Assembly: GCA_951406725.2 (NCBI GenBank)
Contig: OX597835.1
Span: 38,378,001 to 38,442,000 of the forward strand
DNA from: Octopus vulgaris
Lineage: Eukaryota
Reading direction: 5' to 3'
Length of the DNA stretch: 64,000 bases
How positions within the stretch are numbered: the first letter of the stretch is position 1; each line of letters begins with the position of its first letter. Position numbers and translations under genes: made by a program. The notes beneath the pieces are model-generated. The model saw nothing but the letters and a program-made list of their open reading frames with translations. It did no database searches and had not been told where the DNA came from. Of the stretch, positions 11,263 through 53,509 are shown piece after piece.

Positions 11263-12524
11263 CGAGGGGCGTTCAATAAGTAATGCCCCTGACCCACTTC
11301 CCATAGCAGTAGAGCAACGAAACTTGGCACAGTTATTAGTCTTTTTCTACATAGGAACCACCCAGCGTTACGCATTTCTCACATCGTTCGATGCAGCTCT
11401 GGAGACCGTTTTTGTAGAAGACACCAGCTTGGTCCTCCAACCACGACGTGACTTCAGAAATCAAGGCTGCATCATCTGGGAAACGCTTTCCTTTCAAAAA
11501 CAACTTCATGGCTGGGAAGAGGTGAAAATCAGAGGGTGCAAGGTCAGGAGAGTAGGGGGGATGGGGGATGAGTTCATAGCCGCACGACTGTGCTTCTGAT
11601 CTGGCGACACGCGAGTTGTGGACCGGAGCGTTGTCCTGCAAGAGGAGGATGCCTTTGCTGATCTTGCCCCGCCTCTTGATTTTGATAGCTTCTCTTAATT
11701 TCCTCAAAAGGGAAGCATAATAGGCTCCTGTAATTGTGGTACCCTTTGCCAGGAAATCTGTCATCAATACTCCGTCCTGGTCCCAGAAGACTGTGAGCAT
11801 GACCTTGCCAGCAGAAGGCTGCACCCTTGCCTTCTTTGGAGGAGATGAGTGACGGTGTGTCCACTGCATTGACTGGGCTTTGGTCTCTGGATCATCGTGA
11901 TGGACCCAGGATTCATTCTGTGTTATCAGTCTTTTGAAAAATTTTGACTCATCTTCTTGGCACATCTCCAAATTCATCCTCGAGCAATCGACGCGTTCTT
12001 GCTACTGGAAAGATGTGAGCAACCTGGGAATCCATCTGGCAGACACCTTTTGCATATGCAAATGGTCATGAATGATAGTTTCCACAGACCCGGTACTAAT
12101 CTTGACCTCATGAGCTATTTGGCGAATAGTTATGCGTCGATCTTCCAAAATGGCAGCCTCAACATGACGGATAGATGCCTCATCAATGGCGAAGGGGCGA
12201 CCAGATCTGGAAGCTGTTTCCACAGAGTTCCGACCATGTTTGAATTCACGATGCCAGCGTTTTACAAGGTCATATCACCATAAGTTACTTTCATTTCATC
12301 AAAGTCTCCCGTGGTGTGCGTCCTTTCAAATACAAAAACCGCATCACTGCTCGACATTCAACAGGCTCCATTTCACACTTGACTCAGTTCAAACACCTGT
12401 AAATCGGAAACCACAATTAGTTCAGAGCTGTAATTTGCCACTTAAACTATAGAGATATAAATAATTGTACATGCAATTAAATAACTGCAAGTGGGTCAGG
12501 AGCATTACTTATTGAACGCCCCTC

Positions 12525-35482: not shown

Positions 35483-35517
<35 letters not shown>

Positions 35518-35596
35518 GGTCTCGGGTTGATTCGGGGTTAACCACAGTAAATAAGGTACTCAATACATAGCAGAGTAAAATTAATTTATATAGAAG

Positions 35597-35649
35597 GAGC
35601 TTCTACAGGACTAGAACTGTTTCATTCAAGAGAAATCTTCAGGAAGCTC
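35597..35649 (-). ncRNA. Type I hammerhead ribozyme in pLTR
   Basis: Minus strand reads GAGCTTC-CTGAAGA-tTTCtcttGAAt-GAAA-CAGttctagtcCTG-TA-GAAGCTC; stem II is weak. Confidence 0.75.
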
Positions 35650-35808
35650 TTTAGAAAATAGAAAAAAAGGATGGTCGAAGAAGAACGATCTCCATCGAAT
35701 TCTTTTGATGAACTCATCAGTCCGTCTAATGAGGGCTTTTTGGTACTGTTTCCTTGGTGGGATAGTAATGTTCTTCAGGGAAGTATCGAGGTCGATTCTT
35801 GTCAGCAT
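35626..35808 (-). pseudogene. Truncated N-terminus of a Penelope-like ORF (60 aa)
   Basis: SLKNITIPPRKQYQKALIRRTDEFIKRIRWRSFFF fits the SLKNIPIP...LI...E.FIKRMRWKAFFF pattern recalled for PLE N-termini. Confidence 0.7.
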
Positions 35809-35938
35809 TTTTTCTTGGTGATGGTTATAAGGGCACTGGGGTGTGCTAGGATATGTAGGTCCCGGGTTGATTCGGGGTTAACCACAGTAAATAAGGTACT
35901 CAATACATAGCAGAGTAAAATTAATTTATATAGAAGGA

Positions 35939-35987
35939 GCTTCTACAGGACTAGAACTGTTTCATTCAAGAGAAATCTTCAGGAAGC
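35939..35987 (-). ncRNA. Type I hammerhead ribozyme in pLTR (second copy)
   Basis: Identical core with 5-bp stem I GCTTC/GAAGC. Confidence 0.7.
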
Positions 35988-36445
35988 AGATATATATATC
36001 TTGTACAGTTCTTCAAATTATATTTTGCTATAACGATCACACTGATGAGTTGCGGACATTTACGTAAGTATTTTGTAAGTGGTAACAATGGAACAGGGTT
36101 TGTGATTAATCTTTATATTTTGTATCTTTTTATTTGTCTTGCTCGCTTATGTTCTGGCGTTTGCTGAATTTTCTTGAGAACAATCTTTTCTTAGTGGTCG
36201 GTCCATAGCATAATGGATGTCCACTTAGTGGTCATCCTCCGTAAATGTATATATATGGTAGATCGTTAGCTACTACACACCTTTTTTCTCTCCTTGTTTC
36301 TCTCCGTGTTTTTTCTGTGTCCCTTTCTGTAGAAGAGCGTAGGCTCGAAACGTAAAAGACTTTTCTATTCCTGAGCGTTATACTAATACATCTGTTTGTT
36401 TTGTGCACTACCCGTCTTCGTCTTTTGTTTTTTTGTAAACTCTGC

Positions 36446-40370: not shown

Positions 40371-41097
40371 ACGTATTCGTATATATTGCGTGTACGTGTG
40401 GGAGGCGAGCGCATGAGTGTCACGTTAGAATACACATCCTCAATATGTCGTCCAGAAATTTCCGGACCAGTTGTCTACGAAGGGAAACTGTTAACCATTC
40501 CACCATGCGCGAATTACACGTGATGTTTGATACAAGAGTTAGGAACACGAGACATGGCACCTCAATGGGTGTTAATTGTGGAGGTTTCGTTTCTTATCTC
40601 TTTTTCTTTGTCAGCAGACGACGTTTTTTTCCTCTTCAAATATTAGACACCATTGCTTTTGTAGAATCACTTCCGTTTCATGCAATGTTAAAACTTCCTG
40701 AACATTCCAACCAATGAGAAAAATGACTGCGAATAAATTATTCTAGGACGTCTGCTGCACAAAAACATAACAATGAAATGGGTACTTGTGGACTCAACCC
40801 TTTGTTTGTCGAATTTCATAAGTTTTTCCTAAACGCCCATGTCTCTCTTCAGGCTTTTAGTCAACCCTTATTTCATATGTTCTGAGAAATATAAAGTTTT
40901 CCTTTCATAAGTCCCAAGTTATTCCGGTGGTTGCTCCAGTTCATTCAGCTGTAGAAATGAGTTTATGGCCTTCCATAAACAACCTTGCTCGGACTTGTGC
41001 CTCAGGGAGGCAATTTCTAGGTGCCATCCCATGGTCATTCATAACCGAAAGGTGTCGTGACCCTTTACCCTTTATATATATATATATATATATATAT

Positions 41098-41512
41098 ATT
41101 TCTTTACTACCCACAAGGGGCTCAACACAGATGGGATAAACAAGGTCAGACAAACGGATTAAGTCGATTATATCGACCCCAGTGCGTAACTAGTACTTAA
41201 TTTATCGGCCCTGAACGGATGAAAGGCAAAGTCGACCTCGGCGGAATTTGAACTCAGAACGTAACGGCAGATGAAATACCTATTTCTTTACTACTCACAA
41301 GGGGCTAAACACAGAGAGGACAAACAAGGACAGACAAACGGATTAAGTCGATTATATCGACCCCAGTGCGTAACTAGTACTTAATTTATCGACTCTGAAA
41401 GAATGAAAGGCAAAGTCGACCTCGGCGGAATTTGAATTCAGAACGTAACGGCAGACGAAATACGGCTACGCATTTCGCTCAGCGTGCTAACGTTTCTGCC
41501 AGCTCGCCGCCT
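41098..41512 (-). mobile_element. SINE family B dimer
   Basis: Two bodies, junction at 41280/41281. Confidence 0.9.
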
Positions 41513-46400: not shown

Positions 46401-46415
46401 ACATACATATGTGTA

Positions 46416-46522
<107 letters not shown>

Positions 46523-46643
46523 CAAAATCAAGGAACGGCCATAATAGGCCATTCACCCACTAGAAATAACAGCCAAAGCTTCAACCGCAAAACAACATTA
46601 ATTCCGCAAACCAGGAGAAAATTAAAAAAACATTTACCCTGTA

Positions 46644-46750
46644 GTTCTTTATACGATGCACCGTTTCATCTATTGTTTAATGGTAAACTAACCTGATTAA
46701 ATTAAATCAAGCTAGTCTTCCATAGGCCGATAGATTCGTCAGTAAAGAAC
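46644..46750 (-). ncRNA. Type I hammerhead ribozyme, copy 3 (inverted)
   Basis: Reverse complement of 46997-47103. Confidence 0.9.
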
Positions 46751-46996
46751 GGCCAGATCGGAGCCGATATTTACACGAGGCACTTCTATCACTGTCTCGG
46801 CAATATCTGACCTAAAATTTTCAAATCATCGCACTCGCGCCAAATTTATCGGCAGCAAATATAAGCCGCCGATTCCATTACGGAATTAACCAGAAAATTC
46901 ATAATTAATCAATATATATGATTTGAAAATTTTAGGTCAGATATTGCCGAGACAGTGATAGAAGTGCCTCGTGTAAATATCTGCTCCGATCTGGCC

Positions 46997-47103
46997 GTTC
47001 TTTACTGACGAATCTATCGGCCTATGGAAGACTAGCTTGATTTAATTTAATCAGGTTAGTTTACCATTAAACAATAGATGAAACGGTGCATCGTATAAAG
47101 AAC
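46997..47103 (+). ncRNA. Type I hammerhead ribozyme, copy 1
   Basis: Stem I GTTCTTTA/TAAAGAAC; core CTGACGA 47005-47011; stem II closed by ATCTAT/ATAGAT; GAAA 47080-47083; stem III CGGTGCATCG; GUA triplet 47093-47095. Confidence 0.9.
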
Positions 47104-47481
47104 TACAGGGTAAATGTTTTTTTAATTTTCTCCTGGTTTGCGGAATTAATGTTGTTTTGCGGTTGAAGCTTTGGCTGTTATTTCTAGTGGGTGAATGGCC
47201 TATTATGGCCGTTCCTTGATTTTGCTGTTGAATTTATAAATGGTCTATGACTATTTAATTTTTTCCCACTAGGCCGCTGGTGGCAAAAAGAATTCTACGA
47301 AATTTTTTGCCACCCTATATTGATTAATTATGAATTTTCTGGTTAATTCCGTAATGGAATCGGCGGCTTATATTTGCTGCCGATAAATTTGGCGCGAGTG
47401 CGATGATTTGAAAATTTTAGGTCAGATATTGCCGAGACAGTGATAGAAGTGCCTCGTGTAAATATCTGCTCCGATCTGGCC

Positions 47482-47588
47482 GTTCTTTACTGACGAATCT
47501 ATCGGCCTATGGAAGACTACCTTGATTTAATTTAATCAGGTTAGTTTACCATTAAACAATAGATGAAACGGTGCATCGTATAAAGAAC
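47482..47588 (+). ncRNA. Type I hammerhead ribozyme, copy 2
   Basis: Same motif 485 nt downstream: CTGACGA 47490-47496, GAAA 47565-47568, GUA 47578-47580; one substitution in distal stem II. Confidence 0.9.
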
Positions 47589-47807
47589 TACAGGGTAAAT
47601 GTTTTTTTAATTTTCTCCTGGTTTGCGGAATTAATGTTGTTTTGCGGTTGAAGCTTTGGCTGTTATTTCTAGTGGGTGAATGGCCTATTATGGCCGTACC
47701 TTGATTTTGCTGTTGAATTTATAAATGGTCTATGACTATTTAATTTTTTTCCCACTAGGCCGCTGGTGGCAAAGAATTCTACGAAATTTTTTGCCACCCT
47801 ATATTGA

Positions 47808-47963
<156 letters not shown>

Positions 47964-48634
47964 ATATTTATATATAGCTCGCGGAGGCTTCGGCATAGTG
48001 CACAATGCCATTTTCTATGCATTTTCTTTCAAGATGTCATAGCTACCTCACTTTCGCCATATTTGGTTTCTTACCTTTGTATTGTGGTTCTCAACATCAC
48101 TATATGTGGTTTCCATGTAAATATAGCACATGCTTAAGCTGTTTCTCGTGAATTAGTTAACCTTTGTTCAGGTTAATATAGTCCAAATTACATTACACAA
48201 AGTATCGTTTTTAGAAAGGTTGCGCTGGGTTTGAGGGAGATTTGGCAATTACATCCATCAGGTCGAATGACAGTTTAAGGGGTAGTATTTTCCTTTCTAT
48301 GTATCAGACGCCGGAAGTTAAAATAATCATCAACTGCATCGGTTTCTCTAGTCTGAAGGTGTGTATAAATATTTACGGTAACTGCTTTTCTCCTTGTATC
48401 ACTAGCGCTACCACCACGACCACCACCACCAGCGACGCCTCCGCCATCTCCTCATCCATTTGTGCGTGTGTGTGTGTGAGAGAGAGAGAGAAAGAGAGTG
48501 AGAGAGTGAGAGTATATTTAGGTGTGAGTGTGTGAGTTTGAATGTGTACACGAAGCTATACACTGTTACCTGACAAACGTGTATTCTGATTCATTTAAAA
48601 GTAAAAAAACGTATACATTACACAAACATGTATC

Positions 48635-50707: not shown

Positions 50708-50972
50708 CATGCGGGAATGCGTGCGTGCGCGTATGTGTGTTTGTGAGTGTGCGTGTGTGTTTGGGTGGTCGGTAGTTGCCTCTTTCTTTTCTTTTCTTTT
50801 CTTTTTTTCATGTCGGTGAAGAATATTCCATTATTTTCCTATTATATGTATTAATGGTTTTAACACAATTACTTCCGGTTTATGTAATGTAGTACTTCCT
50901 TCCTCCAATTCTAAGATCGTTATCTCTCATTCCTGACATTTTTGTTTAGCAACATTATATAGCAGGCGGGCA

Positions 50973-51387
50973 GGCGGCGAGCTGGCAGAAACGTTAGCGC
51001 GCCGGGCGAAATGCTTAGCTGTATTTCGTCTGTCGTTATGTTCTGAGTTCAAATTCCGCCGAGGTCGACTTTGCCTTTCAACCTTTCGGGGTCGATAAAA
51101 AAAGTACCAGTTACGCACTGGGGTCGATGTAATCGACTTAATACCTATGTCTGTCCTTGTTTGTCCCCTCTATGTTTAGCCCCTTGTGGGTAGTAAAGAA
51201 ATAGGTATTGCGTCAGCCGCTACGTTCTGAGTTCAAATTCCGCCGAAGTCGACTTTGCCTTTCATTCTTTCGGGGTCGATAAATAAAGTACCAGCTTCGC
51301 AATGGGGTCGATGTAATCGACTTAATTCCGTTTTCTGTCCTTGTTTGTCCCCTCTATATTTAGCTCCTTGTGGGTAACAAAAATATA
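50973..51387 (+). mobile_element. SINE family B dimer with 17-bp TSD
   Basis: TATATA(G/A)CAGGCGGGCA at 50956-50972 and 51388-51404. Confidence 0.9.
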
Positions 51388-51480
51388 TATATAACAGGCG
51401 GGCAGGCGTGGCCGAGTGGTAATTGTAGGATCGCTTCGTTACCGCGTAGTGTTGCGTGTTCAATCCTACCGTGAGGAACT

Positions 51481-52007: not shown

Positions 52008-52244
52008 AATTTTTTATTTTATTGCCTACAAGGGGCTAAACTTAGAGGGGACAAACAAGGACAGACAAAGGGATTAAGTCGGTTGCATCAACCCCAGTGC
52101 GTAGCTGGTAATTTATTTATCGACCCCGAAAGGATGATAGGCAAAGTCGACCTCGGCGGAATTTGAACTCAGGACGTATCGACGGACGAAATAACGATAA
52201 GCATTTCATCCGTCATACTAACGATTCTGCCAGCTCACCGTAAT
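52008..52244 (-). mobile_element. SINE family B monomer with 11-bp TSD
   Basis: TGCAGTGCATT at 51997-52007 and 52245-52255. Confidence 0.9.
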
Positions 52245-52593
52245 TGCAGTGCATTTGCCTTTTAACAGTTGAAATATTTGACAAATATATTTCACCTTAA
52301 TTAATTCTGTTCATACATAAACACTGCTTAGCGCTAATAATTTATTTTCCTTCGATCGGGCGGTCTACTAGCGCAAATCAGTCAACATGTTGACTGAATT
52401 ATACAGAAAGCTGTAGCTTTGTAAGTCCGCTTAGAGTTGTCTCCCGTAGGTACATCTCATCGTAAATAGCCAACAAGCTTGAAACACCGATGCCTGAGAT
52501 TCCCAACAGATGGCGACACTGAACAGACTTGGTGTTTTCAAACCTTTTTTTGCCATAAGAAATTTTACCTCCACAGTAACTGCAGTGTATTAA

Positions 52594-53194
52594 GGCGGCG
52601 AGCTGGCAGAAACGTTAGCACGCCGGCCGAAATGCGTAGCCGTATTTTGTCTGCCGCTATGTTCTGAGTTTGAATTCCGCCGAGGTCGACTTTGCCTTTC
52701 ATCCTTTCGGGGTCGATAAATTTAGTACCAGTTAACGCACTGGGATCGATATAATCAACTTAATCCGTTTGTCTGCCCTTGTTTGTCCCCTCTGTGTTTA
52801 GCCCCTTGTGGGTTGTAAAGAAATAGGTATTTCGCCTGTCGTTACTTTCTGAGTTCAAATTCCGCCGAGGTCGACTTTGCCTTTCATCCTTTCGGGGTCG
52901 ATAAATTTAGTACCAGTTAACGCACTGGGATCGATATAATCAACTTAATCCGTTTGTCTGCCCTTGTTTGTCCCCTCTGTGTTTAGCCCCTTGTGGGTAG
53001 TAAAGAAATAGGTATTTCGTCTGCCGTTACCTTCTGAGGTCAAATTCCGCCGAGGTCGACTTTGCCTTTCATCCTTTCGAGGTCGATAAATTTAGTACCA
53101 GTTACGCACTGGGGTCGATATAATCGACTTAATCCGTTTGTCTGTCCTTGTTTGTCCCCTCTGTGTTTAGCCCCTTTTGGGTAGTAAAGAAATA
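52594..53194 (+). mobile_element. SINE family B trimer with 12-bp TSD
   Basis: 185-bp bodies start at 52641, 52826 and 53011; CTGCAGTGTATT at 52580-52591 and 53204-53215. Confidence 0.92.
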
Positions 53195-53509
53195 AGGAAC
53201 ATGCTGCAGTGTATTTGCCTTTAGCAGTTGAAATATGTGACAAACATATTTCAACTAACCTAAATTCTGCTCCTATTCTATTATGTTACATTGACTGAAA
53301 TTGCTGTAGTTAACATGAAATCCAGTTCAACATGTTGTGCATGGTCGGGTTGTCGGCTATTTATGAAGCATTTCTATCCAGCTTAATTCGGGAAGGGTGG
53401 ATGAGCTGAAACGAGTTAATGACCATCCAATAATGCGTATATATGCAGATTTAATATGTATGTCATTATGATTAGCGATATATTCGCTTTCCATTGAGAT
53501 GAAGGCACG

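Follow-up and report, generated by a model that had tools for sequence, protein, structure and literature searches.

By all features that can be tested in sequence, a 485-bp repeat unit of the Octopus vulgaris genome (2.8 Gb and rich in microsatellites) is a non-LTR retrozyme, and the family most probably propagates as a + strand RNA circle that is copied into (TA)n by a Penelope-like reverse transcriptase (RT)/GIY-YIG protein. The class is a known one; the ribozyme is unusual, and the genomic signs of Penelope-type mobilisation are unusually direct. The unit was studied in a stretch of 64,000 nucleotides (the window, whose coordinates are used throughout), where an insertion of 1.3 kb, flanked on both sides by (TA)n, consists of an inverted arm followed by 1.85 direct 485-bp units (46918-47815). 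An earlier sequence-only reading had placed a monomer at 47096-47580 and likened it to retrozymes; these limits coincide with the predicted cleavage sites of two consecutive hammerheads (each after a GUA, at 47095 and at 47580), and retrozyme proved to be the right class for the 485-nt unit. The parts of the insertion are as follows.

46403 to 46521, no strand: left (TA)n target microsatellite
46521 to 46916, - strand: inverted 5'-truncated arm (unit positions 221-485, then 1-131)
46918 to 47095, + strand: first direct unit, 5'-truncated (unit positions 308-485)
47096 to 47580, + strand: complete 485-nt monomer, from cleavage site to cleavage site; predicted circular RNA
47216 to 47231, + strand: first fixed insertion end and putative reverse-transcription start (about position 130), directly after TTGAT
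47317 to 47331, + strand: second fixed insertion end and putative start (about position 236), directly after TTGAT
47581 to 47815, + strand: last partial unit (unit positions 1-236), stopping at the ~236 site
47813 to 47976, no strand: right (TA)n target microsatellite

The outer end of the inverted arm is the putative ~130 initiation site, and the second end lies in a largely unpaired stretch. The inverted arm contains a third copy of the hammerhead (core start at 46742 on the - strand) and differs from the monomer at 2 of 396 nt; the arms carry 1-2 substitutions each relative to the monomer. The longest ATG open reading frame (ORF) of the monomer is 18 aa, and its GC content is 37.5%.

A type I hammerhead, recognised from its core by eye and by pattern scan, spans the unit junction in the order 8-bp stem I, CUGAcGA, 68-nt stem II, GAAA, short stem III and GUA. 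It is present at all three copies in the window and on one polarity of the unit only. Its elements are listed below.

46997 to 47103, + strand: type I hammerhead 1, predicted cleavage after 47095
46997-47004 with 47096-47103, + strand: stem I of hammerhead 1, 8 bp
47005-47011, + strand: CUGAcGA of hammerhead 1
47012-47079, + strand: stem II of hammerhead 1, 68 nt
47080-47083, + strand: GAAA of hammerhead 1, followed by stem III
47482 to 47588, + strand: type I hammerhead 2, predicted cleavage after 47580; stem III 12-mer self-complementary
47478-47481 with 47504-47507, + strand: predicted 4-bp pseudoknot between the flank of stem I and the internal loop of stem II

Rfam misses this hammerhead with its 68-nt stem II: no hammerhead was found among the matches listed for the whole window (150 of 274, nearly all microsatellite hairpins), and the 7 matches to 46522-47812 included no ribozyme. 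The predicted pseudoknot is invariant in 66 monomers but for a C-to-U wobble (52/66) and one single change, with no double compensatory change among these monomers. The stem III 12-mer stays self-complementary in a subfamily with two loop changes, and its calculated energies (-17.5 and -13.6 kcal/mol for the duplex versus -0.2 kcal/mol for the hairpin) suggest that cleavage may occur in a dimer, as it does for an axolotl retrozyme motif with a self-complementary stem III (PMC7229834). A further subfamily, seen at loci L136 and L137, has an altered stem I and stem III, and there too the 12-mer is self-complementary. The catalytic fold is not the minimum free energy (MFE) structure; it lies 2.3 kcal/mol above the ensemble in the window unit, and its cost in 43 sequences has a median of 4.1 kcal/mol (range 2.0-9.8). 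Stem II opens with an A-U pair, and some subfamilies have mismatches there. Of nine predicted Xenopus retrozymes, eight were reported to be uncut in vitro (Li 2026, 10.64898/2026.07.22.740005).

The family is large. The exact 19-nt stem II motif has 3,027 matches in the genome versus 0 for its reversed control, and two other motifs have 2,026 and 2,434 exact matches versus 12 and 2 for the reversed controls; the genome thus holds about 3,000 units, and extrapolation from the first 100 motif matches, which fell into 35 loci, suggests roughly a thousand loci. The loci examined in detail numbered 71, namely the 21 closest to the window copy and 50 drawn from those listed for contig C1. Their units are 84-99% identical to the window unit, form several subfamilies, measure 481-495 nt, and stand in head-to-tail non-coding arrays within (TA)n of up to 9 full units.

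The outer ends of the insertions fall at two positions of the unit, ~130 and ~236, a few bases past TTGAT, and run into (TA)n, as nearly all ends do. Ends on both strands, in the form of a partial tandem plus an inverted 5'-truncated arm, were found at 41 of 69 loci, and every one of these 41 pairs one ~130 end with one ~236 end, leaving a tail of ~105 nt. The remaining loci have only the ~130 end (16), only the ~236 end (9) or neither (3), in a pattern-based classification that short stubs may escape. This arrangement resembles that of Penelope-like elements, which form partial tandems with an inverted 5'-truncated copy and a tail of 30-40 bp on one end (Craig 2021, 10.1101/2021.04.23.441226). 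In vitro, a Penelope protein was shown to cut AT-rich DNA on both strands and to extend both, the tail lying between two internal RNA start sites of reverse transcription (Frangieh 2024, PMC11167929). At the left flank of locus L020 and the right flank of L013, short end stubs recur several times between TA units, which would fit priming that slipped and began anew.

The cleavage site lies far from the ends of the octopus insertions, which read across it. Since the cDNA starts within the unit and crosses the cleavage junction, its template would be either a circle or an uncut multimer. Units differ by a median of 2 substitutions within a locus versus 29 between loci, although assembly polishing or local homogenisation could raise the identity within loci; at one extreme, the 6 units of locus L123, spread over both orientations, show 0 substitutions, and at the other, locus C1_41004207 has up to 17 among its own units. 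The near-identity of units within a locus, including the 6 identical units over both arms of L123, favours a circular template. It could instead be argued that the family parasitises Penelope as a non-autonomous element whose template is a linear, multimeric read-through RNA and no circle, with the hammerhead and fold kept for another step, such as protein binding or 5' release from host transcripts. Uncleaved multimers would also explain the read-through of the junction, hammerhead cleavage of an anole element is dispensable for insertion in vitro with uncut RNA as the main substrate (PMC11167929), and the loci with heterogeneous units require later mutation or template switching if each came from a single circle. 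However, arrays of 6-9 units, some identical across arms, would require that kilobase RNAs stay uncut despite the many intact hammerheads they carry, and repeated 5' truncation should shorten the arrays over generations if no circle renewed them. A linear template is therefore considered improbable.

In the preferred retrozyme reading, transcripts of tandem loci would be cleaved at GUH by the hammerhead, perhaps in dimeric form via stem III, and a host ligase would close the monomer into a stem-rich circle. A Penelope protein would then nick both (TA)n strands and start cDNA at ~130 and ~236, one per strand; the cDNA would pass the ligation junction, often for several rounds, and so give tandem-plus-inverted insertions. 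Propagation would be limited to variants that keep the fold and the core.

A candidate for this protein is encoded in the same genome. An ORF of 781 aa with RT and GIY-YIG domains was found in 12/12 loci chosen for that ORF length, in an element that ends in (TA)n; the two ends of this element are separated by 38 nt (in L121 each arm has one), and it carries a minimal hammerhead of the U3-A8 variant type 67 and 105 nt upstream of these ends; a strict CUGANGA scan missed this hammerhead, which was seen once a U3-A8 core was allowed. The loci concerned (L111-L122, for example L114 744-5960) show a young, abundant Penelope-like element with a coding-like region upstream of the 781-aa ORF, pLTRs and (TA)n targeting. 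A blastn search (word 7) of the unit against 42 Penelope loci found no homology to the partner pLTR, and its one strong match was a separate unit fragment near GIY-YIG in L083. This fragment and a Penelope fragment beside L064 are both separate insertions. The unit and the Penelope families seen have no 3'-end sequence in common; these families come from 150 scored of 6,136 GIY-YIG candidates (30 as loci), so that others went unseen. As it has no detectable sequence in common with the unit, the 781-aa element is a candidate partner only.

Another possibility is that the copies, far from being independent elements, are terminal repeats (pLTR ends) that an autonomous Penelope-like element left behind in truncated form, and their anatomy, with a partial tandem, an inverted 5'-truncated arm and a tail, is indeed that of Penelope insertions. 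However, an RT/endonuclease body joined upstream of the unit was found at 0 of 71 loci; there the unit is preceded by host DNA, an inverted arm or a further unit, and in no case does it run on into coding sequence. Among the 23 5' flanks that are open, just two stretches are shared, both of which also occur elsewhere in the window, and the three Penelope protein matches in 56 loci all lie outside the insertions. Head-to-tail arrays, moreover, contain up to 9 full units, and this origin is regarded as very unlikely.

The proposed circle is densely paired, as the sequence-only reading had claimed. The circular + strand monomer has an MFE of -142.9 kcal/mol versus -108.9 +/- 4.8 for 100 dinucleotide shuffles (z -7.0), of which 0 were as low, and 61% of its bases are paired. 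The six helices named by that reading, although defined from one sequence only, lie where it placed them, nest without conflict, and have 56/56 pairs in the circular + strand MFE; their non-Watson-Crick positions are G-U only (3/56 pairs, in helices 1, 3 and 5).

47138-47149 with 47343-47354, + strand: helix 1, enclosing helices 2-4; one G-U
47184-47191 with 47265-47272, + strand: helix 2, pure Watson-Crick
47193-47200 with 47207-47214, + strand: helix 3, one G-U
47279-47289 with 47304-47314, + strand: helix 4, pure Watson-Crick
47359-47367 with 47376-47384, + strand: helix 5, one G-U
47423-47430 with 47461-47468, + strand: helix 6, pure Watson-Crick

Strand asymmetry in folding was absent by z-score (circular, -7.0 for + and -6.0 for -; linear, -6.4 and -7.2), and the minus strand also forms 51/56 of the helix pairs. 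The raw MFE of the two strands differs by 27 kcal/mol, but the shuffles differ likewise (-108.9 versus -78.1), which places a G+U-rich composition behind this gap. The G-U wobbles had been read as pointing to the + strand as the functional RNA; that conclusion stands through the hammerhead on the + strand and the variation among copies, whereas the argument itself was weak, given just 3 wobbles in 56 pairs and a minus strand whose folding is nearly as significant.

The variation among copies was read from an alignment and tree of 89 complete monomers from 42 loci, in which a substitution on a branch leading to at least 2 loci was counted as inherited and one confined to a single locus as private. 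In the six helices, inherited changes comprised 11 between Watson-Crick and G-U, 1 between Watson-Crick and A-C and 4 others, and private changes 11, 12 and 20, respectively. Pairs were thus kept or broken in a ratio of 11/5 by inherited versus 11/32 by private changes (p 0.005), and the strand test of G-U against A-C gave 11/1 versus 11/12 (p 0.013). The contrast between inherited and private changes also held for all + strand MFE pairs (p 0.04) and for the 106 pairs common to the MFE structures of both strands (keep versus break, p 0.022; G-U versus A-C, p 0.039), so that the bias of G-U over A-C has p values of 0.013-0.04 across pair sets. It should be noted that the signal weakened from p 8e-5 (66 monomers) to 0.005 (89 monomers) once a third subfamily was added, that pair 53-249 supplies 4 of the 11 inherited G-U events, and that the tree was midpoint-rooted and recombination can inflate event counts. 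Double compensations, a check that the sequence-only reading had proposed, were found in stem I (8-387, U-A/C-G; 5-390, A-U/G-C) and stem II (406-465, A-U/G-C), while a test restricted to the 17 hammerhead pairs did not reach significance (inherited 5/5 versus private 5/4). Across the 89 monomers, no inherited change and a single private one were found at the 11 hammerhead core positions, a conservation that is partly circular since the monomers were excised by core motifs, versus 6 inherited changes at the freely variable N7 and N17. Taken together, these data support selection on + strand RNA structure, as had been proposed: inherited changes preserve the helices, mostly via G-U, and private ones behave randomly. 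The likeness to viroid-like circles drawn by the same reading holds for the fold only, as the copies bear the DNA-insertion marks of Penelope-like retrotransposition; RNA-to-RNA replication with ribozymes in both polarities is taken as the mark of viroids and viroid-like RNAs, and the octopus unit has its hammerhead on one.

None of the sequencing runs listed is recorded as RNA, which speaks neither for nor against expression. Most of the unit is covered by contigs from four runs of four studies, each taken for RNA by guess only, and such contigs cannot tell RNA circles from tandem DNA. Four of the 24 loose-end sequences listed, from three runs, differ from a genomic subfamily only by A-to-G on the + strand, in a comparison with genomic sequence that was made by eye and included no DNA-run control. 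The changes affect 9/14, 3/14 and 7/10 adenosines in three loose ends and number 2 in the fourth, and two of these loose ends include the GAAA core. An exact A-to-G-rich pattern of 21 nt has 0 matches in the genome, and no A>G-hypermutated unit occurs among the 89 monomers (at most 2 A>G relative to the nearest neighbour). The loose ends hint at ADAR editing of + strand RNA, with which they fit; read-through of inverted arms could also give them.

The idea of a satellite- or MITE-like element, whose inverted repeats would be features of the DNA and whose G-U bias would be mutational (for example from A-to-I editing copied back into DNA), can draw on the similar folding z on both strands, the A-to-G-rich contigs, and an inherited excess of A>G over T>C at paired (14 versus 8) and unpaired (11 versus 6) positions, but wobble-forming C>T is about as common as A>G at paired positions (11 versus 14), double compensations occur, pair-breaking changes are depleted, hypermutated units are absent from the 89, and a DNA satellite would keep neither the hammerhead core nor fixed one-per-arm ends, so that it can be set aside as extremely unlikely.

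Within the retrozyme reading, a more specific and decidedly tentative proposal is a twin-primed circle, in which two TTGAT-marked starts 105 nt apart, one per nicked strand, would each begin rolling-circle reverse transcription. The hammerhead, with its 68-nt stem II, pseudoknot and dimer-forming stem III, would represent a new architecture, and ADAR editing of GAAA could switch off re-cleavage.

The unit resembles the animal non-LTR retrozymes of coral, mussel and axolotl (Cervera & de la Pena 2020, PMC7229834) as a non-coding, low-GC tandem repeat with one type I hammerhead per unit, a highly self-paired predicted circle, thousands of copies and coexisting Penelope-like elements, and its self-complementary stem III is like that of the axolotl motif. 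At 481-495 nt it is longer than the 150-450 bp given there, though Li 2026 has a range of 51-972 bp, which includes it. The 68-nt stem II and predicted pseudoknot, missed by Rfam, also set it apart, as do its ends, nearly all in (TA)n, and the two fixed ends with inverted arms, which are not described in the text consulted. Dependence of retrozymes on Penelope-like elements was likewise proposed by Li, Clavereau and Pollet 2026 (bioRxiv 10.64898/2026.07.22.740005), from co-occurrence and pLTR homology in Xenopus, whereas the octopus case rests on the insertion signature, with no pLTR homolog found; their sample covers 35 species and, going by the classes named, no mollusc. With endonuclease-positive Penelope-like elements (10.1101/2021.04.23.441226; PMC11167929) the unit has in common partial tandems, an inverted 5'-truncated arm, a one-end tail, microsatellite or AT-rich targets and a hammerhead upstream of two internal RT starts; unlike them, it has no ORF, a tail of ~105 nt versus 30-40, a repeat unit that makes up the whole element, and a full-size where theirs is a minimal hammerhead. 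Pseudoknotted hammerheads (Perreault 2011, PMC3088659) similarly have a 4-5 bp pairing of stem I with stem II that replaces the usual loop contacts, but the octopus pseudoknot is predicted, arises from the internal loop of a very long stem II and shows no double compensation. In the literature, no account of the 485-bp family or of retrozyme tails was found, though either may be listed in supplements; the main text of PMC13282606 mentions neither ribozymes nor retrozymes, and PMC6962438 reports 235 hammerhead 1 matches in giant squid.

Other repeats were also observed. A second, unrelated hammerhead element at 35515-36010 on the - strand has two direct repeats of ~165 bp at a distance of 340 bp. 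Both repeats contain a compact type I hammerhead, with the cores at 35982 and 35642; the element ends in (TA)n ~100 nt past the cut site, has a copy in L107, and is probably a short Penelope derivative as well. Type I hammerhead motifs also lie in other repeats near (TA)n at L084, L088, L092/L112 and L116, three of them with a long stem II (39-54 nt), which suggests more such families in the genome. A repeat of 184-185 bp, in short tandems and in both orientations (41097-41512, 50929-51393, 52011-52240 and 52592-53196), is presumably part of an abundant SINE-like family, and a 221-aa open frame at 11336-12001 on the - strand resembles a mariner transposase fragment.

The form of this hammerhead points to an undercount of ribozymes by model-based searches of such genomes, and about a thousand young loci allow selection on structure to be read from inherited versus private changes. 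The return of animal retrozymes to DNA has so far been a hypothesis resting on co-occurrence and on pLTR homology in frogs. The twin-primed circle, if true, would be direct evidence that Penelope uses the circles of animal retrozymes as substrates, and it would offer a natural template on which the formation of Penelope tails and inversions could be dissected. With the strict rule of one end per arm (41/41) and an intact candidate partner, the question becomes testable in the existing in vitro Penelope assay.
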